The position numbers and the translations under genes were made by a program. The notes below the pieces were generated by a model. It did not search any database and was not told the DNA's origin. It saw only the letters and a program-made list of their open reading frames with translations. DNA of 52,058 bases, from the sequence record SRR20825010_3505; one strand, written 5' to 3'. Of this stretch, positions 32,623 to 44,774 are shown in pieces. Numbering within the stretch: the stretch's first letter is position 1; the number at the start of each line of letters is the position of its first letter.

Positions 32623-35600
32623 TTAGCGAGCGACCAAGTAGGTGCCGGCAAAACGGTCGCTGAACAAACGGCGACGGCTTCGGTAAATCACGATCGCGAG
32701 ACAGACCGTGATTACGGTGCCGGCTGCTGAGAATCGTTGTACCGTTTCAATCGGCCAAAGAGCACTGACTTCGCCTCGCCAAGTCCAAAGCAATATCAGC
32801 ACACAGGCGGGAGTGAAACCTGTCGCAAACATGCGAATGAAGACTCGCAACCCGGAGGCGAGTTCGCCTCGTTTGTTGACGACCGCTAAGCCGAACAGTC
32901 GTAGGATCATTCCGCCTCGAAAGAGTAACCCGGTCACCATGCTTGGCACCCAAATCAGTTCCAACCACGTCAGGGTTGCCCAAAAAACACCGCCGCCGAG
33001 TCCGATGAACTCATTTCCTAGGCGAGGCAGTTCGTCATGAGATGATCGGATCTCTGCGACCAAGGCTTCTGCCGATTCGATTTCCGATTCACTAAGTTCG
33101 GGTAAGGCATCAATCTCGTTCAGCGTTGTTCGGTGCGCCGCGAACAAAATTTGACCATAGACCGATAGCATGACCTCGTCATCGTGTATCAGGTGTTCGT
33201 AGTTGGCTTTGGCGTACGTTTTCAAAGCGTTTAGACGCAACGTTTTGTCTGGTTGGCCTGCTCCGCGTTCTTGCGCTGTCAGCGCCAACACCTCCTGCAA
33301 CTCGCGTGCTTCGGGCATCGATGCCTCTTGTTGCTGGACGAGGACTGTCATCATCACGCTCGACAAAATCGTGAACATCGGCAACACAAGGGTTGCCGCG
33401 ATCATGCCAGCGACTCGATTGGAAACGCGGATTGGCCGTTTCGTGAGCAGGGCACTCAAAGTCTTCGTCACCGATGTGAGGGAAGCGGCATGCTGTAGTT
33501 CGCCAATCAATTTTGCTTCGGAAAGCGACATCGCGTGACTGCTGGATTGCGTCGTGCGATAGCGGTCGGCAAATAAGCTTGCGACGTTGGACAGCGTGCT
33601 TAACCAGGCGGAATCATCTGTGCTTTGCAGTTGTGTTGTCAGTTCAGCTGATGATTCCGGCTGCCTCACTTTTTCGCCTTCCGATGGATCGACCATTCCA
33701 AACGGCAGCAGTTTGACGTGGCCGGTTTGTGTCACCCACACTTGATTGATTGACAAAGATCTTGTTTGATCGTCCGCTTGCGAGCTGGCGGAAAACTCAT
33801 CTACAAGTTGTCGAAGCACGTTCTTGGCAGTCGACCACGAAAGTGATTTTGATTCTTCGTCGGCGATCGACCAACCTGAAAGGGCTTCAAAGGCGTCCCA
33901 GGTTTGCGTTGGTTCGGCTTGTCCACCAAGCCATCGCAGAACACAGGGGCGACTCGAGTTTTTTTGCATCAATGTCAGAGGCGACGCACCACTCGGTCGA
34001 ACGTGCAACCAGATTCGGCGAAGTAACGTGGTGTCGTACCCGAGCAACAGTTCCCCCTGGTCGGTCCGGCCAAGCGACTGTAGGACGTGGTAGGGGCCGA
34101 TCTTTTCCGTGCCGGATCCGCGATCGAATGATTCGCCAGCATCTGAACGTGGCTTTTCGATGACAATATTCATCTTTTCCACAACACGCGTTCCCGTAAT
34201 CAGGTCATGGATGGCCGCATTGCCATTGCGTGCTCGAGCGGTCAGGAACATGCCCGCCAAGATCAGGTAGTGAGACCAACCCAGCAGCAGTGCAACAGCA
34301 AACGTGCCGAAGGACGTGACAGGGCTGAATAGCACGTCGCCCAACGCATAACGACCGATGTGCCCTGGAAGAACTGGTGGAATCGTAAACAGCAACGAAC
34401 GCAAGGCTGCGGTTGCGAGCGTGGGACGACCACCTGCTTGGACGACCTGCATTCCCAAGAGTCGCTTGCCAAGCGTTTTCCCGTAGCGCCATTCGCTTAG
34501 TGCGAAATAGAAGAATTGGGTTGATATCCCAAACACAGATGCAATCACCGCACTGAACCCAGGAAACGGCTCGCCCTGGGCTACCGATGCTTGGCTTGAA
34601 AACAGGAACAAGCTGATCGGAGTCAACACGATTGCTAAGACGAGGTAGTCCAACACCGCCGCCAACGTGCGACTGCCCAGCGTTGCTGGTGTTGGTACTC
34701 GTGAACTCAGGGGTAGCAACGCCGTGCGTAGTTCGTCGTAGCTGGCGAAACGATCTCCCGGTGCTTTCTTCAAGCACTTGGCGATGACACGATCCAGTTC
34801 CGTATGGGCTTCCAGTCCAGAATCACGAAGCGATGGCGCCGCGTTGTCGAGCACACGAGCAAGCAGTTGCACCATGTTGTCAGCGGCGAATGGAACTTTT
34901 CCGGTCACCAAGTAGTACATTGTGACACCGATCGCGTAGATATCGCTGCGGTGATCAAGAGGTTCGCCGCGTAATTGTTCTGGCGAGGCATAGGCCGGCG
35001 TGCCTAGGAACGTGCCAACTTGTGTGATCTCAGTTTGCGTTTGGGCCAGTTCCGAGCCAGCCGGTAAATCACGCCCCACCGCGGTGATAGACAATCCAAA
35101 GTCGCCAATCTTGACGTGCCCATCTTCATCGACGAAGCAATTGTTTGGTTTGATATCGCGATGCAGGATGCCTGCATCATAGGCCGCGTCCATCCCGTCG
35201 ATGACCTGCAGGATCACATCAACGGCGGCTTTTGGTTGGAATGGACCGTTGGCTTTGACAAATTGGTGAAGTGTGCCGCCACGAACCAGTTCCATACTGA
35301 TCGTTGGTCGACCTTCGATCTCATCAGTTCCATAAACGTAAACGGTGTTGGGGTGATTGATCGATGCGGCCAGACGTCCTTCGCGAAGAAACCTGGCACG
35401 TGAGTCACGATCTTCGAGTGAGTGTCCCATCACCTTCAAGGCCACTCGTCGAGAGGTCGGTATGTGATCGGCTTCATAGACCACTCCCATGCCACCGTGC
35501 CCGAGTCGGCCCACGATTTGATAGTCACCAAATGCTTGGTCAGGGACTAGGTCGGGAAATTCAATGTCGTCGCTCGATCCGACACCGAGCACGACTGACT

Positions 35601-35757
35601 GGGTGACGTCGAGGGGGGAAGCAGCAACTTCGGACGGCGTTGGCTGCATCGCTAACCGCATCATGCAGGCGGGGCACGCCAATTGCCCTGCCGCCACTGT
35701 CAGTTCCTTGCCACATTGCGGACACCGGCCGCTGTAGTCGTCACGGTTGTTCATCAT
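32623..35757 (-). CDS. Membrane Ser/Thr protein kinase with RDD domain(s) and a degenerate second kinase-like segment
   Basis: N-terminal CPQC/CPAC; GHGGMGVVY, VALK, HRDIKPNN, DFG, GTPAYASPE; RDD motifs RTLAAVLD, GKTLGKRLLG and HDLITGTRVV. Confidence 0.92.
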   Translation of the reverse strand: MMNNRDDYSGRCPQCGKELTVAAGQLACPACMMRLAMQPTPSEVAASPLDVTQSVVLGVGSSDDIEFPDLVPDQAFGDYQIVGRLGHGGMGVVYEADHIPTSRRVALKVMGHSLEDRDSRARFLREGRLAASINHPNTVYVYGTDEIEGRPTISMELVRGGTLHQFVKANGPFQPKAAVDVILQVIDGMDAAYDAGILHRDIKPNNCFVDEDGHVKIGDFGLSITAVGRDLPAGSELAQTQTEITQVGTFLGTPAYASPEQLRGEPLDHRSDIYAIGVTMYYLVTGKVPFAADNMVQLLARVLDNAAPSLRDSGLEAHTELDRVIAKCLKKAPGDRFASYDELRTALLPLSSRVPTPATLGSRTLAAVLDYLVLAIVLTPISLFLFSSQASVAQGEPFPGFSAVIASVFGISTQFFYFALSEWRYGKTLGKRLLGMQVVQAGGRPTLATAALRSLLFTIPPVLPGHIGRYALGDVLFSPVTSFGTFAVALLLGWSHYLILAGMFLTARARNGNAAIHDLITGTRVVEKMNIVIEKPRSDAGESFDRGSGTEKIGPYHVLQSLGRTDQGELLLGYDTTLLRRIWLHVRPSGASPLTLMQKNSSRPCVLRWLGGQAEPTQTWDAFEALSGWSIADEESKSLSWSTAKNVLRQLVDEFSASSQADDQTRSLSINQVWVTQTGHVKLLPFGMVDPSEGEKVRQPESSAELTTQLQSTDDSAWLSTLSNVASLFADRYRTTQSSSHAMSLSEAKLIGELQHAASLTSVTKTLSALLTKRPIRVSNRVAGMIAATLVLPMFTILSSVMMTVLVQQQEASMPEARELQEVLALTAQERGAGQPDKTLRLNALKTYAKANYEHLIHDDEVMLSVYGQILFAAHRTTLNEIDALPELSESEIESAEALVAEIRSSHDELPRLGNEFIGLGGGVFWATLTWLELIWVPSMVTGLLFRGGMILRLFGLAVVNKRGELASGLRVFIRMFATGFTPACVLILLWTWRGEVSALWPIETVQRFSAAGTVITVCLAIVIYRSRRRLFSDRFAGTYLVAR

Positions 35758-35792: not shown

Positions 35793-35818
35793 GTAACGAA
35801 AAACGGACAGATGGTTAC
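35793..35818 (-). promoter_or_regulatory. Putative ECF-type promoter GTAAC-N15-CGTTAC upstream of the kinase gene
   Basis: Minus strand reads TGTAAC catctgtccgttttt CGTTAC, ending 36 nt upstream of ATG 35757; GGAG SD-like sequence follows. Confidence 0.5.
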
Positions 35819-35881: not shown

Positions 35882-36610
35882 CTAGGAGATTGCCTTCAAC
35901 AGCGTTTCTAGCTCATCGGTGACATCGTTCTCGTCTTCAACTGTCGCCGCCACGGCATGTCGCAATTGCTCGCGATACTCTCGCCGTAACCGATGGACAG
36001 CCACCTTCACGGCCCCGAGTGTCATGCCCAATTTACTAGCGGTCTCTTCGTATTTGACGTGACCACTTTCTAAACTCAGGTAAGTCGACAAAGCATCAAA
36101 TAACTCGGGTTTTCCACGGTCAGCGTACTTCCTCGAGAGCAAACTCAACGCTTCTTCCAGGACCGTGAGAGCCCAGCGGCGTTCAAACTCCGCTTCAGGT
36201 GATATCGCCGTAGCTGGTTCGGCAATAAGTGCGCCCTCCGCGTCTCGTACATCCAGGCTCAGCAAACGCCGGCCACCGCCTCGCCGTAAGGCATTGTCTC
36301 GCGCATGTTGGTTTCGCATGAAGTTTTGCAAGGAAGACAGCAGGAACGTGCGAAAACGTCCACGTTTCCGATCCGCAATCGAAAGGGCATCGCTCGAAAG
36401 AAGATGGACAAAAAACGCTTGAACGGAGTCCTCCGCGGCTTGCGTTGATTGACCACTTCTGCGAGCAAACCCATAGAGTGGACGCCAGTATCGTTGGCAC
36501 AGATCGCTTAGCAGATCGTTGTGTGACTTCCCAACCTGGTCGCCAGCTGCAAGCACCAAACTCCACTGCGTTGTTTCAAATCCAAAGTTCTTCTCGTTGG
36601 AATCGACCAT
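35882..36610 (-). CDS. ECF RNA polymerase sigma factor (kinase-associated type, FxTTxWSLV N-terminus)
   Basis: Sigma2: YWRPLYGFARR, AEDSVQAFF, RGRFRTFL. Sigma4: YEETASKLGMTLGAVKVAVHRLR. Directly upstream of the kinase. Confidence 0.92.
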   Translation of the reverse strand: MVDSNEKNFGFETTQWSLVLAAGDQVGKSHNDLLSDLCQRYWRPLYGFARRSGQSTQAAEDSVQAFFVHLLSSDALSIADRKRGRFRTFLLSSLQNFMRNQHARDNALRRGGGRRLLSLDVRDAEGALIAEPATAISPEAEFERRWALTVLEEALSLLSRKYADRGKPELFDALSTYLSLESGHVKYEETASKLGMTLGAVKVAVHRLRREYREQLRHAVAATVEDENDVTDELETLLKAIS

Positions 36611-36705: not shown

Positions 36706-37359
36706 TCAGCGAGTCGGGCGGTTGGCTTCGAGTTGTTTCTCGAGTTGTCGCATGCTGCGTGACAGCAGGACTCGGATGGAGACATCGGTTTTGCCGAGTT
36801 GTTCCGCGATCTGTTTGGTCGGCATGCCATCGACGTAGCGAAGCCGGATGACGTTTTGCTGCTCTTCACTCAGTTGACCGATCGCTTGGGACATCGCGTT
36901 GAGCCGAATGTTTTGGCTGACCACGGCACTGGGTGACGTCATGCTGGCGGCGAGCAGTTGTTCCATTCCCATCGCACCGTCATCGCTGCCTGACGCACCA
37001 CCGCCGTGGATCGATTGTTGCCGACCGGCATCGCGTCGTTTGGCATCGAAGTGAAATCGGTGGGCGTCGACCACGCGTCTGCGGGCGAGTTGTTGCAGCC
37101 ACTGCATCACCGAATACTGGTCCAGCGGTGCGGTCGGCAAACCCGAGATGGCGGCCGTTGCGATTTCTTGGATCAGGTCGTCGACTTCGACCAATGCCAA
37201 CAGGTGTTCGCCGGTGATGGATTTCACAAATCGAAACAGAGAATCGCGATTCTGAGCGATGTATTCGCCCAACGCGTCGACGTCTCGCTGGCGAATTTTC
37301 TGAATGAGCGGATCATCCGCTGGTGAGTTCGATGAGTCGATTGAGCTTTCGTCGTTCAT
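36706..37359 (-). CDS. ECF RNA polymerase sigma factor (planctomycete kinase-associated type)
   Basis: DDLIQE, WLQQLARRRVVDAHRFHF..KRRDAGRQ, TSPS, LSEEQQNVIRLRY..GMPTKQIAEQLGKT; start ATG 37359. Confidence 0.92.
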   Translation of the reverse strand: MNDESSIDSSNSPADDPLIQKIRQRDVDALGEYIAQNRDSLFRFVKSITGEHLLALVEVDDLIQEIATAAISGLPTAPLDQYSVMQWLQQLARRRVVDAHRFHFDAKRRDAGRQQSIHGGGASGSDDGAMGMEQLLAASMTSPSAVVSQNIRLNAMSQAIGQLSEEQQNVIRLRYVDGMPTKQIAEQLGKTDVSIRVLLSRSMRQLEKQLEANRPTR

Positions 37360-37488: not shown

Positions 37489-39768
37489 ATGACGTCTCGA
37501 CAGTCAGCCCAACGTCGTGCATCGACCACCGCGGAGGATTCCACACTGGATCTGGACGAGATCTTGCTGGAGTGCCTGGAACGTTTGGCAGAGGACGAGG
37601 AGGGTGGAAATCCTCAGCGAGTTTGGGAGTTGCTTCCTGTTCGATTTCAAAACGATGCGGCAGCGGGCGATCGATCGGGCCGCTTCGTCTTGGTGGAAAT
37701 GGTGAAGATGAGCATGGCGATCGCGGTGCAGAATGAATGCCCGCGATGGTTGGATGATTACTTTGATGCCTTTCCCGAATGGTTTTCCCCTGAGTCGGCT
37801 CCGTTTGATTTGGTGATGGAAGAGATTCAACTTCGTCGCGAATGTGGGCAGACCCCAGAACATGCGCACTATCGAAACCGGTTCCCACATTTGGAACCCG
37901 TTTTGAAGCCACTGTTCGATCCATCGGGCGATCAACACGCGTCCATCGCGAAAACACCTCGTCGTGGGACGCCGACCGAGTTGGCGGTTGGAGCGGTGGT
38001 GGATGATTTTGAGATCATTCAAAAACTGGGTGAGGGTGCGTTCGCTCATGTGTATTTGGCTCGTCAGAATTCCATGTCGCGATTGGTCGCGTTGAAAGTC
38101 GCCAACGACACCGGGGACGAACCGCAAGCACTTGCCCAGTTCGACCATCCGAACATCGTGCGAGTGTTTGATCAGCGTCAGGTGGCGGTTCGTGATGATG
38201 AAGCGGCAGGTCGCTTGTCCGAGTTGTATTTGCTGTACATGCAATTTCATCCCGGTGGCACATTGGCGGACGTTGTCCGTTTGGCTCGTTCGGTTCCGCT
38301 TGTCCAACGCGACGGGGACATCTATTTGCGGGCGGTGGATCAAGCGTTGTTGGAATCGGCGCAGGTCGTGCCGGATCGCTCGACCACTCGAGCATGGTTG
38401 GTTGGATGCGAATGGCCCAAGGTGGTCGCTTGGGTTGGTTTGCAATTGGCAGACTCTTTGCATACCGCACACGAAGCCGGGGTGCTGCACCGCGATGTCA
38501 AACCGGCCAACGTTTTGTTGACCGCCGAAGGCTTGCCGCAGTTGGCGGATTTCAACGTGTCGATGGCGGGGACTGCCGGTCGCGCCGGTGCCGCATCCTC
38601 GTTGGGCGGTTCGGTCGGTTACATGGCTCCCGAGCATCTCGATGCGATGAGTATCACGCGGGACGGGCGTCCAGAAGATGTCGGTGAGGCCGCGGATTTG
38701 TATTCTTTGGCGGTTTTGCTGTGGGAACTATGGCAAGGGAAGCGACCGTTTGACTGTTCGCATGAGACTCATTCTTGGACGGAGTTGTTGGAAGAACAGC
38801 ATGCGGCGCGGAAACGCGAGTTGTTGGTTCCAGATCGGTTGGACACACCGTCGGAACGAGTTCTGGAGAGCGTGCTTCGATCCGCGTTGTCGGTGAATCC
38901 CGGGGATCGTCCGGAGAATGGCGCGGCGATGAGTGGTAGCCTGCGTTTGGCGATGCACCCAGAAGCCGCACGCTTGTTTGATCCAAAACTTGGCTCTTGG
39001 ATGCATATGCTGGGAAAGGTTTCACCATGGTGGCTGTCCGTTGTTTCAATCTTGCTGCCCAACATCGCGGCGGGATTTATCAACTACTTTTACAACCACA
39101 GCGAGATCATGCCGGCAGAGATGCGACCAAGCCTGGATGAATTCGCGATCTGGGTGAATTCAGTTGCGTTTCCGTTGGGAGTTGGATTGATCGTCGGCTA
39201 CACGCGTGCGTCCGCGAGAGCGTTGAAGGCAACTCGGCAGGGTGAATCCGTGGGAGAAGATGAGCTCAATTCCATGTTGCGGCTGGGTTACCGGGCCGCA
39301 TCGATTGGAGGTACGTGCTGGCTGATCGCGGGATTGGTTTATCCGCTGTTGTTGAAGGCGAGGTTTGATGAGTTCACCGATGGTCAGGCGGTTCACTTCT
39401 TCATCTCACTGCTGATTTGTGGTGGGGTGGCGATGGTGTACCCGCTGTTCGCGTTGAACGTGGTTGCGACTTGTGTGCACTATCCCAAGATGATTCGACA
39501 GACGATGCGGGATCCAAACTTCGAACGCCATTCGCAACAAATGATCGGCGATAGCGAATCGTTCTTGCTCATCGCCGCTGTCATCCCGTTGATGGGAGCT
39601 GCCTTGATGGTCTTCAGCGAAGGGCAGACGAAGGAGTATTTGCTGATTGCAATCATCGCTGGCATGATCGGTTTGCTCGGCGCGTTCGCAAGTTATCGCA
39701 TCATCGTTCGAACCTGGGCCGTTCTGTCGGAAGTGCTCTCCAACGAAACAACGGCCACGCCGCGTTGA
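37489..39768 (+). CDS. Membrane Ser/Thr protein kinase (DFN variant) with C-terminal multi-TM region
   Basis: GEGAFAHV, VALK, HRDVKPAN, DFN, GSVGYMAPE; N-terminal Y..RFP region; about six C-terminal hydrophobic helices; divergent from the ECF gene. Confidence 0.92.
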   Translation: MTSRQSAQRRASTTAEDSTLDLDEILLECLERLAEDEEGGNPQRVWELLPVRFQNDAAAGDRSGRFVLVEMVKMSMAIAVQNECPRWLDDYFDAFPEWFSPESAPFDLVMEEIQLRRECGQTPEHAHYRNRFPHLEPVLKPLFDPSGDQHASIAKTPRRGTPTELAVGAVVDDFEIIQKLGEGAFAHVYLARQNSMSRLVALKVANDTGDEPQALAQFDHPNIVRVFDQRQVAVRDDEAAGRLSELYLLYMQFHPGGTLADVVRLARSVPLVQRDGDIYLRAVDQALLESAQVVPDRSTTRAWLVGCEWPKVVAWVGLQLADSLHTAHEAGVLHRDVKPANVLLTAEGLPQLADFNVSMAGTAGRAGAASSLGGSVGYMAPEHLDAMSITRDGRPEDVGEAADLYSLAVLLWELWQGKRPFDCSHETHSWTELLEEQHAARKRELLVPDRLDTPSERVLESVLRSALSVNPGDRPENGAAMSGSLRLAMHPEAARLFDPKLGSWMHMLGKVSPWWLSVVSILLPNIAAGFINYFYNHSEIMPAEMRPSLDEFAIWVNSVAFPLGVGLIVGYTRASARALKATRQGESVGEDELNSMLRLGYRAASIGGTCWLIAGLVYPLLLKARFDEFTDGQAVHFFISLLICGGVAMVYPLFALNVVATCVHYPKMIRQTMRDPNFERHSQQMIGDSESFLLIAAVIPLMGAALMVFSEGQTKEYLLIAIIAGMIGLLGAFASYRIIVRTWAVLSEVLSNETTATPR

Positions 39769-39808: not shown

Positions 39809-40522
39809 TCACTGCGAAAGGTTGTTGCCATTCGGTGTGATCTGCTCGATTGCTGAACGCAGCGGATCCTGAGGTGAAACCGCGGAAGCGGCGGGAGCCG
39901 GTTGCGTGATGCCACCGTTCTGTGGGGCGACATTGACGGCAGGTGCCGTGTTGGGTTGCACGGTTGGCTGCAACGTCGCCGATTCGGGAACGACTTCCGT
40001 GGTTGTTTCGACCGTGACCGACTCGACCGTTTCGATCGGCAAGGAATCCATCGAGAAGCATTTGCGATTGTTGAACTCGTTGCATTCGAAGAACTCATCC
40101 CAACTGTCGATGATCACGGTCAAGTGTTGCAGGCCGATGATCAGCCCGCCGCGATTGCCCATGGCGAGCGTCTCAATTGGCAGGGAGACTTCGACTTGGA
40201 GGGCTCCATTGGCGGGGATTTGTCCAGCGACCACGGTGGTGCGAGGTGAATGCGGCAACGCTTGGCCGAGTGAACCGATCGCGGTGACATGGAAGTCTTC
40301 GACGCAGCGATTGCTTTTGTTGGCGATCACGATCCCGAAGCGAGGGCCACAGGATTGATCCACGACAGGAAGTTGTTTGACCTCGACGATTTCCAAATCG
40401 CCGATGTCGTCGGGAGGAACGATGAAGCCTTGGCCTTGGCATGCGACGATGCCGATGGTCACAAAGGCGATGAACAGGATGGCCGTGTTGAGTGCCTTCA
40501 CGGAAAAGGATGTGCGATACAT
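39809..40522 (-). CDS. Secreted protein with CARDB-like Ig-fold domain and P/T/A-rich tail
   Basis: Start probably ATG 40522 (MYRTSF) with signal-like segment; GDLEIVEV...V.N...IIDSWDEFFECNEFNN matches the CARDB D...ExNExNN pattern. Confidence 0.7.
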   Translation of the reverse strand: MYRTSFSVKALNTAILFIAFVTIGIVACQGQGFIVPPDDIGDLEIVEVKQLPVVDQSCGPRFGIVIANKSNRCVEDFHVTAIGSLGQALPHSPRTTVVAGQIPANGALQVEVSLPIETLAMGNRGGLIIGLQHLTVIIDSWDEFFECNEFNNRKCFSMDSLPIETVESVTVETTTEVVPESATLQPTVQPNTAPAVNVAPQNGGITQPAPAASAVSPQDPLRSAIEQITPNGNNLSQ

Positions 40523-40680
40523 GAGATTGTGCCTCGTAGAGAATTTTGCAGATTCATGAAAAAGCCCGGCAATCCACTGTTGGGATGTACCGGGCATGCC
40601 GTGCGATGAGCGTGATGCGTTGTTTGGGTTCGATCACTCGGTGAAATGGATCACCCTGCTGCGAATCGCAGTGAAGTGGC

Positions 40681-41112
40681 TCACCAGCAACCCCAGTAGC
40701 TTGTGTAGACGGGGGTGTAGTAGTGGTGCACGACAGGCTTGTAGTGCACGACGGGTGTGTAGTGATAAGACGAGTAGCTGTAGGGGCTGTAGTACGAGTT
40801 GTAGTGGGTGTAGCCGTAGCTGCGATGGCCATAGCTGCGATACCCGTAGCTGCCGCGGAAGCGACGGTAGCAGGCTGCGACTGCTTCTTCGGAATCCACT
40901 TCGTCTTCACCGTCGTTGAGCAGCGATTCGACATCAGCCAGCCCGAGTTCCATGTCGTCAGCCGAAGCTTCGGCGATGTTCTCGATGTCGGCGGTGTTGT
41001 TGCTTTCGGCGGCGGCTAAGCGAGCGAGCAAGTTGTCGTCAGCTTTCACAGCGGTGCCGACCAAGCAGAAGGTCATGGCCATTGCAGCGGTGATCAGAGT
41101 TCGTTTGGACAT
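40681..41112 (-). CDS. Secreted prepropeptide-like protein (signal peptide, acidic region, Tyr/His/Arg-rich C-terminal peptide)
   Basis: 143 aa; signal ending VKA; 18 D/E in the next 56 aa; C-terminal 63 aa contain 18 Tyr, no acidic residue and a Cys at each end; GGAG SD upstream. Confidence 0.8.
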   Translation of the reverse strand: MSKRTLITAAMAMTFCLVGTAVKADDNLLARLAAAESNNTADIENIAEASADDMELGLADVESLLNDGEDEVDSEEAVAACYRRFRGSYGYRSYGHRSYGYTHYNSYYSPYSYSSYHYTPVVHYKPVVHHYYTPVYTSYWGCW

Positions 41113-41208
41113 CGTTCAGTCTCCAGGAAGTTTGTTTTGCGGCGTTGTAAGAAAGTCGCCAGCGAGTTTGCCGCGTCGTTCGCTGTCGTTCGTCTTGTGA
41201 CTGAACGG

Positions 41209-41236
41209 CTAAGCGGAGGAGGTCCAAAGTTGTTAC
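41209..41236 (-). promoter_or_regulatory. Putative ECF promoter, copy A (GTAAC-N16-CGCTTAG)
   Basis: Minus strand: GTAAC aactttggacctcctc CGCTTAG, upstream of the 41112 gene. Confidence 0.7.
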
Positions 41237-41272
41237 TGGAAAAAACGAATTTGTTTTTGAAACATCGAATCT

Positions 41273-41300
41273 GTAACAACTTGACTGCGGATTCGCTTGG
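41273..41300 (+). promoter_or_regulatory. Putative ECF promoter, copy B (GTAAC-N16-CGCTTGG)
   Basis: GTAAC aacttgactgcggatt CGCTTGG, upstream of the 41359 gene. Confidence 0.75.
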
Positions 41301-41358
41301 AAAGCATCGCCCACACGCGTGCGTGATCGTTTCTTCCTTCTGACCAACGAGTGAACCG

Positions 41359-42288
41359 ATGCGACTCTCTCACCGCAGTCTCTGCTTCTCACTGTTGTTT
41401 GTTGTTTTGCCCACTCTTCAAGTTCGGGCGGATGACGATCTGTTTTCGAAAGTTGCCATCGACTCCGTTTTCACGACGGCATCGTCGAAACAGGCCAGCG
41501 AGTCATCGAGCCCTTCGATCTCGATCGAGGCTGGATCGCCGAAGGTGGAAACGATCGATGATTTGGACGAACTCTTTCCACTCGCTAAAGAGATTGATGA
41601 AGAAGCCGTCCGCGAATTTGGTGCGATTCGGTTGGTCAGTCGATCTGACAAATGGAGTTTCTCGACTCGGATGACCATTCAGGGAGATTCGCCAAAGGTG
41701 GTCTTTGAAATGGCGCTCGTGACGCTGGACGAGGCTCCGATTGAAAACGAACGAGCGATCTGGCTGTCGCTAATGGAGGCCGGGCAAGCGAGCCGGGCAA
41801 CGTTCTTCGGGATCAACCGCGAGACGGCGGAGGATGGCAAGCAAGGACAATTGGTGCTGCGTTCAACGATGTCGGCTGTGGGGCTGACCACGGAATCGTT
41901 GCGTTCAAAGCTGCAATCGCTCAGCCAATTCGCCGTGGAAAACTCATCGGCTTGGTCGCAATTTCGAGCCAAACCAACGAAAAACACGACGAAACCGGCT
42001 GTCAAAGAGTTCTCGCTGGTCGGGCAATGGCTGGCGACTCCGGTGTCCGGCGAAGCTTACGCGATCGATTTGAAAGCCGTTTCGAATGGCTCGCGGGCGT
42101 TTCAATTGGTGCACGTCAAGGATTCCAAATCGACGGTGTCATCCGGCAAATACTCGCTGAAAGACGGCCAATTCTCGTTGGCCGCGGAGTCGGGAGATCC
42201 GTTGGTTTTTCCGCTGACGTGGAACGATGCTGACCAGTTCGAGCTGGAAATCGGGACGGTGAAGGTGAATTTCAAACGTCAGAAATGA
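41359..42288 (+). CDS. Secreted hypothetical protein (YbjN/type III chaperone-like domain plus C-terminal lipocalin-like beta domain)
   Basis: Signal ending VRA; central LMEAGQASRATFFGI...LVLRSTM...LTTESLRSKLQSL; C-terminal LVGQW...F...GKYSL...NFKR. Confidence 0.7.
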   Translation: MRLSHRSLCFSLLFVVLPTLQVRADDDLFSKVAIDSVFTTASSKQASESSSPSISIEAGSPKVETIDDLDELFPLAKEIDEEAVREFGAIRLVSRSDKWSFSTRMTIQGDSPKVVFEMALVTLDEAPIENERAIWLSLMEAGQASRATFFGINRETAEDGKQGQLVLRSTMSAVGLTTESLRSKLQSLSQFAVENSSAWSQFRAKPTKNTTKPAVKEFSLVGQWLATPVSGEAYAIDLKAVSNGSRAFQLVHVKDSKSTVSSGKYSLKDGQFSLAAESGDPLVFPLTWNDADQFELEIGTVKVNFKRQK

Positions 42289-42294
42289 TTTTCG

Positions 42295-42322
42295 GTAACA
42301 CCGGGCGGGAATTCTCGCTTGG
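42295..42322 (+). promoter_or_regulatory. Putative ECF promoter, copy C (GTAAC-N16-CGCTTGG)
   Basis: GTAAC accgggcgggaattct CGCTTGG, upstream of the protease gene. Confidence 0.75.
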
Positions 42323-42370
42323 TCGTTTGTTCCCAACTTCACACCACACCTGATTTGATGAGGTGATCCA

Positions 42371-43597
42371 ATGTTTCGCTGCCGCCTGACTCGAATGCTT
42401 CGAATTGCTTTTCACCGTTGGATGTCGTTGCTCTGCCCAGCCATCATGCTGGTCATCTCGCTCCAAACGACCAACGCCATGGCGGGCGGGGAAACCTACA
42501 AAAAAGTCCTTCCTTCGACCGTGTGGATCATCACAGCAAACGGGGAAGACCAAACGTCCACCGGAACGGGCGTCTTCGTCGACGCGGACAAAAAGCTGGT
42601 TCTGACCAACGCTCATGTGGTCGGTGACAGTCGGACTGCCGTGGTGTTCTTTCCCGAGAAAAAGGACGGTGAAACGTTGGTCAAACGCAAGCAGTACTTG
42701 GATTCGGTGCTGAAGTTGGCTCAGCCGGGCCGGATCGTCGCGGTGGATCGCAAACGTGATTTGGCTTTGATCGAGTTGTCCGAAGTGCCCGAGCGAGCTG
42801 AAGCGATCGCGTTGGCCGAATCGAGTGTAACGGTTGGCGAATCAGTCGATTTGATCGGAAATCCTGGTGGATCTGACGTCTTGTGGGTCTACACCAGCGG
42901 CACGGTCCGCTCGGTCTATCAAAAGAAATTCAAATCGGATCACGGCGAGCACGATTTTCGCGTCGTCGAGACTCAAACGCCGATCAAACCCGGCGACAGC
43001 GGTGGTCCCGTGGTCAACCAAGCCGGCGAGCTGATCGCGATCGCCCAGTCGTTCTCGCCGTCGCAGAACCTGGTCAGCTACTGCGTGGACGTCCAGGAAA
43101 TCAAGGCGTTCATCCAAAGTCCTTGGAAAGCGGCTCCGTTGGGCACCAAGGTGGTTTTGAAAAACGCGGAGGTGGAATTCGAATTGCATTCGACTGGTCA
43201 CTACGAGGTCAAACAAAAGCTTTCCTCAGGGGCGACGCAGTTGGTCTTCGTCGCGAAAGACACTGAGTATTTCCAGCGAGCTGACGTGCGAAAGGTTTGG
43301 TCGTTGGTTTCGGTCAGCAGCGAGCAGCCCACGGCCGAGCTGATGATGCGACTGATGCGGCAAAACTCGGCGACCAAGATTGGTGGCTGGGTGGTGGAAA
43401 AGAACGGGGCGGGCGAGTTTCTGATCCTGTACGTCGCGAAATTGGATGCGACTGCACCCGATGAAGCCGTTGCCGCCTCGATCGACTATGTCGCCCGAAT
43501 CGCGGGAGCGATGAGCAAGCAACTGGAATCCAAGACGAAGGAGGAGGCCACACCCGAGTCGTCGACCCAGACGCTGGCATCGTGGTTGGCCAAGTGA
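42371..43597 (+). CDS. Secreted trypsin-like (S1C-like) serine protease with C-terminal YbjN-like domain
   Basis: Catalytic triad motifs TNAHVV, DLALI and PGDSGGP; signal peptide; GAGGTGA SD; C-terminal domain RLMRQNSATKIGGW, with no PDZ domain evident. Confidence 0.88.
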   Translation: MFRCRLTRMLRIAFHRWMSLLCPAIMLVISLQTTNAMAGGETYKKVLPSTVWIITANGEDQTSTGTGVFVDADKKLVLTNAHVVGDSRTAVVFFPEKKDGETLVKRKQYLDSVLKLAQPGRIVAVDRKRDLALIELSEVPERAEAIALAESSVTVGESVDLIGNPGGSDVLWVYTSGTVRSVYQKKFKSDHGEHDFRVVETQTPIKPGDSGGPVVNQAGELIAIAQSFSPSQNLVSYCVDVQEIKAFIQSPWKAAPLGTKVVLKNAEVEFELHSTGHYEVKQKLSSGATQLVFVAKDTEYFQRADVRKVWSLVSVSSEQPTAELMMRLMRQNSATKIGGWVVEKNGAGEFLILYVAKLDATAPDEAVAASIDYVARIAGAMSKQLESKTKEEATPESSTQTLASWLAK

Positions 43598-43631
43598 ATT
43601 CCCGGACGTTTGAAAAACTCGAAGTTTCTCT

Positions 43632-43659
43632 GTAACGCATTCAGAAGTCTACCGCTTGG
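43632..43659 (+). promoter_or_regulatory. Putative ECF promoter, copy D (GTAAC-N16-CGCTTGG)
   Basis: GTAAC gcattcagaagtctac CGCTTGG, upstream of the 43726 gene. Confidence 0.75.
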
Positions 43660-43725
43660 CAGGTTGTAAGGCGAAGACATCGCCGCGACACAAATCCAAA
43701 CTTTCCAATGACCGGAGACTGAACG

Positions 43726-44718
43726 ATGAAAATTCAAGCTAAAAAATGGATCTTGGCCGCTTCCGTGATCAGCACCGTGGCTGGACCAACCCTCGAGGCC
43801 CAGGCGTGTGGCGGGGCACGTCGCAGTGGAGTTTCGCGAATCGTGTCGCAGATCCACTCGTCTCGCACGACCAATCGCTACCCATCGTCGACTCCTCACT
43901 ACTCGTCGATCCAGCCCACTTATCGTCAGGCTCCCGTTTATCACAACGCTCCTGTCAGCGTTCAGCCTTCGCCGATCGCTTCGCAGTCGTTTTCCGGTCA
44001 GGCTGTTTCTGCCCAACCTGCTTCCGGTCAATCGTTCGCTCCACAGCAACCCGTTCAGCAACAGTTTGCTCCTCAGCAACCTGCTCAGAACAATTTCGCT
44101 GGCCAGCAGGTCCAAGGCTCGCAAGCTGCACCAACGCGGCAGGCTCCCGTTCAGCAACAGGCTCCTGTCCAGCAGCAAGTCGCTGTTCAGCAACAATCGC
44201 AAACGCAGCCAGCGACTCAGGCTGCTCCGGCAACTCAGCCCGCTGCATCGGCGGAAGCATCGGCACTCGCCATGTTGGCCTCGATCAATCAGCGAACCAC
44301 CACGCCAACCCAGGCGACTGCACCAACTCAAACTACGACCCCAGCACAATCCTCCGCACCCGCAACTCAACCTGCAACCACTCCATCGCAGATCCCAACG
44401 TTTGGATCGGCCACGTCGGCTTCCAGTGTCAGCACGCCGGCACAACCTCACGTGGGATCGTGGAACGTTTCCTTGCCTGGTGAGCAATCCGTGTCGCTGA
44501 AGTTGAACTCCGACGGTTCATTCGTTTGGGTCGCTTCCAAGTCGGGACAAACCAGTCAGTTCTCTGGCCAGTACCGTCTGGATGGTGGCAGCCTGACATT
44601 GGTCCGCTCGCAAGATCTTCAAAAGATGGAAGGCACTTGGACGGCCAGCCAGAACGGTGGCTTCGTCTTTCGGGTTGGCGGCGGCACCAATGGTGGACTC
44701 AGCTTCATACGTTCGTGA
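43726..44718 (+). CDS. Secreted Q/P/A/T-rich protein with C-terminal lipocalin-like beta domain
   Basis: Signal ending AQA; FAPQQP and QAPVQQ repeats; C-terminal HVGSW...DGSF.W...GQYRL...SFIRS; GGAG SD. Confidence 0.78.
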   Translation: MKIQAKKWILAASVISTVAGPTLEAQACGGARRSGVSRIVSQIHSSRTTNRYPSSTPHYSSIQPTYRQAPVYHNAPVSVQPSPIASQSFSGQAVSAQPASGQSFAPQQPVQQQFAPQQPAQNNFAGQQVQGSQAAPTRQAPVQQQAPVQQQVAVQQQSQTQPATQAAPATQPAASAEASALAMLASINQRTTTPTQATAPTQTTTPAQSSAPATQPATTPSQIPTFGSATSASSVSTPAQPHVGSWNVSLPGEQSVSLKLNSDGSFVWVASKSGQTSQFSGQYRLDGGSLTLVRSQDLQKMEGTWTASQNGGFVFRVGGGTNGGLSFIRS

Positions 44719-44774
44719 ACCATCGATCGACTATCATGCAGCGGTTCCAATGTCCCGCTGCATGAGGTTTTGAA

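Follow-up and report, generated by a model that had tools for sequence, protein, structure and literature searches.

A two-part sequence motif that recurs in front of adjacent genes in sequence record SRR20825010_3505 (52,058 nucleotides (nt); 'the window' below means this whole stretch) is, with high confidence, a promoter of the extracytoplasmic function (ECF) type. Its likely reader is ECF2, a sigma factor encoded in the same window next to a membrane Ser/Thr kinase, STK2. We put the probability of the whole explanation, a sigma promoter read by ECF2 under kinase control to give four transcripts, at about 80%. The sigma-promoter pair and its regulon are new, of a known general type and well supported. 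Neither motif nor regulon was described in the literature searched (published work is cited by its PMC number); PMC7776599 covers Planctomycetes, and an earlier bulk prediction may exist there.

A bipartite motif precedes four consecutive genes

An earlier note on this DNA, made from the sequence alone, had listed four copies of the motif, each with exactly 16 nt between its boxes, and no other copy in the window. A search with the pattern GTAAC-N16-CGCTTRG returned the same four copies and nothing else, exact in coordinates, strand and spacing (Table 1), and none of 100 dinucleotide shuffles of the window contained a match. GTAAC occurs 39 times in the window, and relaxing the pattern to GTAAC-N16-CG adds three sites, none of them with CGCT. 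All four copies are intergenic and sense-oriented, and the distances from motif end to ATG, which the note had put at about 50-100 nt, are 97, 59, 49 and 67 nt for the genes starting at 41112, 41359, 42371 and 43726, respectively. Copies 1 and 2 stand back to back, separated by an AT-rich gap of 36 nt. A sigma-70 scan found one site against 3.1 expected. The pattern was chosen post hoc; hence the cross-genome tests below weigh more.

Conservation and start-site signature across planctomycetes

The closest named relatives of the window proteins come from Rhodopirellula. Orthologues of gC, one of the four genes, occur in 22 of 151 genomes of the family to which G001, the nearest genome compared, belongs (G and L numbers denote our genomes and loci), and the motif adjoins them in 23 of 25 loci (22 genomes), with unrelated spacer sequences. 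A wider sample started from 139 loci that contain a relative of the protease gene gD. The best 80 of them were taken, 1.32 Mb in total, and their titles name Pirellulaceae, Botrimarina and Planctomycetaceae. For spacers of 13 to 19 nt, GTAAC-Nx-CGCT was counted 3, 4, 4, 204, 16, 4 and 7 times in these loci. With 204 sites at spacer 16, the boxes keep a fixed distance across these orthologous loci. In 64 of the 80 loci the protease gene has a site no more than 450 nt upstream. Among protease promoters with GTAAC-N16-CG, CT follows the CG in 63 of 66, so the third base of the -10 box is fixed. The resulting consensus reads (Y)GTAAC(A)-N15-CGCTT(G)G.

The sites also carry the signature of a transcription start. 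Of 202 distinct sites, 153 have a pyrimidine-purine (YR) step 13 nt past the first C of CGCT, compared with 17 and 13 at the neighbouring offsets and a background of 27% at any CGCT; 97 of the 153 have G at +2. The upstream flank has 55% A+T versus 43%, and the median distance from GTAAC to the ATG is 95 nt (198 sites). YR start steps and upstream AT-rich elements are properties of true ECF promoters (PMC7776599). The YR step at offset 13 places the CG at -13/-12 and predicts the starts listed in Table 1, about 6-7 nt past the CGCTTRG box, which falls within the 5-8 nt that the earlier note expected. The layout is that of an ECF promoter as well: a fixed, free spacer within the 16-17 nt of such promoters, an intergenic sense position and a short 5' untranslated region. 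Conservation, spacing, start-site signature and AT-rich flank together bear out the reading of the motif as an ECF promoter.

Two Streptomyces promoters come close, CGTAAC-N16-CGTTGA for sigma-BldN (PMC2375139) and CGTAAC-N16-CGATGA for sigma-ShbA (PMC12019637). They share the -35 box and the spacer, and differ in the third base of the -10 box, which is T or A there and C here. This identity of layout also bears on the idea that the boxes are a transcription-factor site, an RNA signal or a recombination signal. Such a reading could appeal to the fact that start sites here are predicted from sequence and that copy 3 can fold into a modest hairpin. It is nevertheless highly improbable, since the site is asymmetric and always in sense orientation, its 16-nt spacer is free, the distance to the YR(G) step is fixed, and no transcription-factor gene is conserved nearby.

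The motif follows ECF2

The earlier note had proposed one of the two ECF sigma factors encoded nearby, ECF1 or ECF2, as the reader. Comparative data single out ECF2 and argue against ECF1. ECF2 and kinases are the only regulators conserved in the 80 protease loci, the other recurring real families being those of the cluster genes gA-gE. ECF2 is found within the locus in 25 of the 80, and in 21 of the 52 with at least 8 kb of upstream sequence, and the linkage survives a rearranged order (L095, L101, L103, L106, L114, L118). For 50 of the 55 loci without ECF2 we searched the genome, and 46 of them have an ECF2 orthologue elsewhere in it, whereas the class-wide rate is 62 of 251.

This rate comes from a profile search of 251 Planctomycetia genomes, in which ECF2 appeared as a single gene in each of 62 (E<1e-60, save one truncated match). 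In the same genomes we counted YGTAACA-N15-CGCTK against the expectation from four wrong spacings; this control replaced a reversed-pattern control, because the latter was also higher in ECF2 genomes (0.56 versus 0.31 per Mb). Right versus wrong spacing gave 255 versus 78.5 sites (3.25-fold) in the 62 genomes with ECF2, and 158 versus 154 (1.02-fold) in those without. The same holds within families, with ratios in ECF2-positive versus ECF2-negative genomes of 4.8 versus 0.92 (f1), 2.2 versus 0.98 (f4) and 17 versus 0.97 (f11, five genomes). ECF2 is present in each of the 12 genomes in which the protease has a full-length orthologue. In the 50 ECF2 genomes in which the protease was not found the excess persists (183 versus 66, 2.76-fold); the motif thus follows the sigma factor and not merely the gene cluster.

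ECF1 encodes the other candidate, 4.6 kb away, with contact residues that also predict GTAAC...CG, and cross-talk in this strain is possible. However, its relatives, present in 71 genomes, occur in only 2 of the 80 loci, at other positions, and a close Rhodopirellula locus (L042), in which the 4.3 kb beyond ECF2 contain no ECF1, still has all four sites. Genomes with ECF1 relatives and no ECF2 show no excess (41 versus 38, 1.07-fold), whereas those with ECF2 and no ECF1 do (181 versus 55, 3.28-fold). Moreover, ECF1 relatives have a GTAAC box of their own, with a different downstream sequence, before the kinase gene in 7 of 12 loci. ECF1 as the conserved reader is largely refuted, and we give this option the least credit of all.

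Several observations weigh against ECF2 as the reader. Four site-bearing genomes, whose completeness is unclear, gave no ECF2 match, and the profile search was limited in scope to 12 scored candidates per genome. Related genomes are not independent, so that the 3.25-fold and similar enrichments are descriptions, not tests. Genome G228 has nine sites versus 1.75 expected, and its best ECF2-like match reaches only E=1e-33 with all 65 candidates scored. No excess (7 versus 6.2) is seen in the six genomes of family f5 that have ECF2, strict sites number one or none in 17 of the 62 ECF2-positive genomes, and seven of the 80 protease loci (L068, L093, L094, L102, L104, L106, L111) lack a site despite ECF2 in the locus or genome. 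STK2 was not seen within 1.5 kb in 21 of 60 ECF2 loci. Finally, the code of contact residues described below fails to separate the two ECFs: ECF1, with Lys-Val and Asn, likewise predicts C-31 (0.98), T-34 and CG (0.40).

These points leave room for a different sigma factor, encoded elsewhere and co-inherited with ECF2, which would then be a mere neighbour or an upstream regulator. G228 and family f5 speak for it, and each genome has tens of ECF-like candidates, of which two sigma families were profiled. We consider it unlikely, given the physical linkage of ECF2 to the cluster across families and rearrangements, the lack of any other regulator conserved in the 80 loci and the loss of the excess in ECF2-negative genomes of the same families. 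On balance, the comparative data make the ECF2 family the likely reader of the promoter.

In G228 several sites precede exported-looking proteins (L192, L207, L212, L231); in this genome the motif may be read by another sigma factor, or the assembly may lack the ECF2 gene. The five sites of G272 are one repeated sequence. In G001, GTAAC-N16-CGCTT has 13 sites, four in the cluster, two intergenic elsewhere and seven inside long open frames, and the CGCT-only pattern has 126 matches over seven spacers; there is therefore no strong genome-wide excess in this genome.

ECF2 and its kinase

We examined 60 ECF2 loci, 30 of the 62 profile matches and 30 from genomes of loci lacking ECF2. The position equivalent to RpoE 84 is Asp, within a DxxR motif, in all 60 orthologues, and positions 171/172 are Arg-Val in 59. 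According to dataset S3 of PMC7776599, Arg171 prefers C-31 (0.88), Val172 T-34 (0.39, the top base), Ser172 G (0.83) and Asp84 CG (0.62). The predicted contacts of ECF2 thus fit GTAAC...CG. Moreover, the HRxxD motif with which ShbA reads CG (PMC12019637) is matched by RRxxD in ECF2.

ECF2 fits group ECF61 as Supplementary Text S2 of PMC7826278 describes it: planctomycetal, with a kinase upstream (usually at -2) that has at least five membrane helices, and with a promoter that is not conserved. Like ECF2, ECF61 is a small single-subgroup family, with no conserved anti-sigma gene nearby and the kinase on the upstream side. ECF61 is confined to Planctomycetes; for ECF2, a protein search gave 1477 matches, of which the named ones within the best 120 come from planctomycetes, and the genome searches covered the class Planctomycetia. 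A divergent upstream STK2 is found in 39 of the 60 ECF2 loci (in one, L121, it overlaps by 6 nt). The STK2 of the window has six hydrophobic 19-mers between amino acids (aa) 550 and 769 by hydropathy, that is, six predicted C-terminal membrane helices. Two features differ: the ECF61 kinase is at -2, whereas STK2 is directly adjacent and divergent, and the ECF61 promoter is described as not conserved, in contrast to the conserved target proposed here. The string CGCT does not appear in the text of Supplementary Text S2 that was searched. A site upstream of ECF2 itself is present in only 3 of 60 loci, by which count ECF2 does not appear to be autoregulated; searches based on autoregulation would miss the motif, which would explain the missing promoter of ECF61.

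Two other assignments of ECF2 were rejected. For ECF59 (TIGR02984) it scores 99.6 bits (two distant orthologues 120.5 and 128.9) against a cut-off of 183.75; this group needs a kinase at +1 and a predicted TC in the -35 box, whereas the ECF2 kinase is upstream and the -35 box is GTAAC. The kinases of ECF59s1 also have six helices (PMC7826278), so the family is close to that of ECF2. For the BldN family (TIGR02952, NCBIfam) ECF2 scores 61.6 bits against a cut-off of 206.45, so the likeness is only at the general ECF level. The best PDB match of the ECF2 profile is 6dxo_A (E=3e-12), the structure of BldN. One source names a member of an ECF2 cluster 'AdsA'.

How the kinase might act is constrained by known cases. 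In ECF43 (EcfP/PknT and EcfK/PknS) an acidic DAED is replaced by STTA and phosphorylated there (PMC8999054). These pairs resemble ECF2-STK2 in combining an ECF sigma with an adjacent membrane Ser/Thr kinase and no anti-sigma factor. ECF2, however, keeps its acidic sigma2.2 residues instead of an STTA motif (E58, D61 and Q64 invariant, E65 nearly so, in 18 aligned orthologues); the ECF43 mechanism is therefore inapplicable, and any phosphorylation must act elsewhere. A candidate phosphosite is an invariant S/T cluster in the sigma2-sigma4 linker, T[ST][PA]S in 60 of 60 ECF2 orthologues, with a similar motif in paralogues. In the window protein the linker candidates are S139, T141 and S144, counted from the ATG at 37359.

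We propose that STK2 would sense a membrane or envelope cue and phosphorylate ECF2, a single-copy planctomycete ECF sigma that usually lies head to head with this six-helix kinase. The ECF2 holoenzyme would then recognize a -35 box (Y)GTAAC(A) and, 16 nt past GTAAC, a -10 box CGCTT(G)G, and would start at a Y-R(-G) step 13 nt past the first C of CGCT. It would produce four separate transcripts, the first of which (gB) would read partly through a hairpin into gA. Transcription from the four sites, recognition by ECF2, kinase control, the phosphosite and the read-through are all inferred.

For R. baltica we took the tags RB790x-RB793x as the range covering this locus. The supplement rows for these tags place RB7919, a 793-aa kinase that probably is the orthologue of STK2, among the genes down in heat (PMC2754498). 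Target genes were not recognised among the rows returned for these tags from the heat, cold and salt lists of the same source.

The significance of the promoter lies in this signalling class. Planctomycete kinase-linked ECF groups are predicted to be switched by phosphorylation, yet keep the acidic motif whose loss explains the one solved case, and the ECF43 precedent therefore does not explain their switching. For ECF61 no target promoter had been found; the promoter and its targets are the missing read-out and could serve as a reporter for mutants of sigma factor, kinase and phosphosite, which opens a predicted signalling class to experiment.

The target genes

The features of the locus are collected in Table 1. 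The earlier note had spoken of four genes for unknown secreted proteins. Each of the four does have its own promoter copy; one of the products, however, that of gD, is an S1 (trypsin-like) serine protease, and a fifth gene, gA, probably belongs to the unit too.

Table 1. Features of the ECF2 locus and its target genes (window coordinates; transcription starts and promoter functions are predictions)
Feature	Position	Strand	Description
STK1	32623-35757	-	Zinc ribbon, kinase domain, RDD membrane domain and more membrane segments
ECF1	35882-36610		Beside ECF2; ECF62-like; followed by a kinase with N-terminal zinc ribbon (STK1)
ECF2	36706..37359	-	217 aa from probable ATG; open frame to 37392; ECF61-like; proposed reader
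STK2	37489..39768	+	Ser/Thr kinase divergent from ECF2; catalytic motifs present, DFN for DFG; open frame starts 37387
gA	39809..40531	-	Predicted exported Ig-fold protein, CARDB-like, disordered tail; start codon uncertain (~40531)
Hairpin between gB and gA	40559..40595	-	-19.7 kcal/mol, then five T; probable partial terminator
gB	40681..41112	-	143 aa; hydrophobic N-terminus, acidic pro-region (18 D/E in 56 aa), A-x-A-C junction
Promoter copy 1	41209..41236	-	Serves gB and probably gA; predicted +1 at 41202 (C-A-G step, from the YR offset)
Promoter copy 2	41273..41300	+	Predicted +1 at ~41306; YR step 1 base earlier than usual
gC	41359..42288	+	309 aa; two domains, matches no known family; C-terminal beta domain related to that of gE
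Promoter copy 3	42295..42322	+	Protease gene gD; predicted +1 at 42329
gD	42371..43597	+	408 aa; S1 serine protease; Trypsin_2 (Pfam) E=1.3e-26
Promoter copy 4	43632..43659	+	Predicted +1 at 43666
gE	43726..44718	+	330 aa; N-terminal leader then Cys; Q/P/S/T-rich low-complexity region; C-terminal beta domain

The core of gB has 63 aa, 18 of them Tyr, and ends in YWGCW. No Pfam or NCBIfam family matched gB, and the Atlas returned hypothetical clusters only; the named ones among its 31 relatives are all Pirellulaceae. The 80 loci contain 39 gB copies ending in WGC[WYHF], 36 of them with the motif upstream. In the 37 copies that could be parsed, Asp/Glu make up 36% of the 30 residues that precede the junction. 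The core begins with C-F/Y-R-R in 34 of these copies; its median length is 62 aa, and it consists of 27% Tyr, 11% Ser, 10% Gly, 9% Arg and 8% Cys. This composition is reminiscent of high glycine-tyrosine keratin-associated proteins and mussel adhesive peptides.

A hairpin with a T-rich tail stands behind 27 of the 39 gB copies (counted without a shuffle control); that of the window was not listed by a simple scanner, which limits loops to 8 nt. In 34 of 37 loci gA is the next gene after gB, and in none of the 37 does it have a site of its own. CARDB (PF07705) matches 19 of 80 gA homologues at E<=0.01 (best 8.1e-7), the window protein not being among them. In a fold search gA matched 2l0d (Z 9.6, rmsd 3.0, 105 aligned residues) and CARDB 3idu (Z 8.2), the latter level with many Ig domains.

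The catalytic triad of gD (H82, D130, S210) is invariant in 34 sequences, and its protease fold is HtrA-like (Deg1 3qo6, Z 26.2, rmsd 3.2, 204 aligned residues). gD thus shares fold and intact triad with HtrA/DegP-type S1 proteases; unlike in these, no PDZ domain was matched, and an alpha/beta C-terminal domain takes its place. The helix-strand order of this domain resembles that of type III chaperone (YbjN/CesT) folds, a candidate that we rejected, as it found no support in Pfam, the Atlas, whole-model fold searches or a profile comparison with gC. A query with this domain had no match in G228 and four ECF2-positive genomes, in a search run without a positive control.

In gE a Cys just past the leader is kept in 38 of 39 homologues, and the beta domain matches TIGR03066 weakly (28.8 bits, below the cut-off of 93.25). 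A 15-nt stretch that runs from the ribosome-binding site to the end of the ATG, GGAGACTGAACGATG, is identical in gB (41110-41124, minus strand) and gE (43714-43728, plus strand), a hint that their leaders share an ancestor. A 9-bp inverted repeat seen by eye right after gE (44736-44763) is the probable end of the last transcript.

The regulon beyond the cluster

The 198 open frames downstream of sites comprise 63 gD, 40 gC, 39 gE, 10 scored as gB and 46 others, many of which are gB relatives or wrong-frame calls. By a crude measure and with no control set, 181 of the 198 have a hydrophobic N-terminus. Five site-rich genomes have 68 sites, of which 30, outside the cluster, were examined. Many of these stand in front of proteins that have a leader and are rich in G, N, Q, H or Y; some are fortuitous matches within genes. 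G001 has intergenic sites ahead of leader-bearing proteins at L001 and L002, with L228 and L230 as additional candidates. The motif lists the regulon in dozens of genomes.

Individual genomes add to this picture. In G342 (L186, L191, L201, L206, L233, L234) there are 24 strict sites versus 0.75 expected, many of them ahead of exported proteins of low complexity, whose repeats include VRDHR and NPQPLPP; the predicted regulon of this genome is much expanded. A Blastopirellula locus (L092:11432-11899, and L213) has a motif-led exported protein of near-perfect N/H/Q/F/K repeats, amyloid-like in composition. In L193 and L200, from different families, a site precedes homologous proteins (58% identical) with no obvious leader, possibly a cytoplasmic member of the regulon. 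One Novipirellula chromosome carries two gA-gE clusters (L051, L052), both of which keep four sites while only one lies beside ECF2-STK2.

Planctomycetes are bacteria known for surface attachment. A gene set that combines a pro-peptide, a protease, an Ig-fold protein and exported proteins of low complexity suggests that the regulon makes a structural or adhesive material outside the cell, which is the least certain step of our reading, and the motif points to a conserved unannotated Tyr-rich exported peptide as a candidate structural or adhesive protein. In Streptomyces, BldN drives the secreted amyloid chaplins and rodlins (PMC6101532), which would be a parallel in function should the targets here prove to be surface proteins. 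By this analogy ECF2 would be a developmental sigma, a counterpart of BldN switched by a kinase, whereas BldN itself is held by the anti-sigma factor RsbN, and its regulon would build an undescribed extracellular protein material (adhesive, fibre or matrix). This is a speculative extension that we think rather doubtful. Pfam and NCBIfam searches found no sequence link between the targets and chaplins. The main subunit of such a material would be gB, exported, kept soluble by its acidic pro-region and cut by gD at A-x-A/C; cleavage would free a peptide of ~62 aa, Cys-flanked and with 27% Tyr, which would cross-link or polymerise, and whose N-terminus in the window protein would be C81. gA would be a minor Ig-fold component made at a lower level past the terminator, and gE, with the scattered low-complexity exported targets of other genomes, would supply variable parts of the matrix.

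The neighbouring ECF1-STK1 pair

ECF1 fits the description of ECF62, with a kinase at +1 that has a zinc finger. The ECF1-STK1 pair looks recently inserted or lost, as it is missing beside ECF2 in the close relative L042. The GTAAC box between the ECF1-type sigma gene and the next gene (the kinase in the window), present in 7 of 12 loci, was noted for the window at 35793-35818 (minus strand), L071, L216-L220, L226 and L227. In the window and L071 it reads GTAAC-N15-CGTTAC, which is nearly palindromic. This box is possibly the promoter with which the ECF62-like family drives its own kinase gene.

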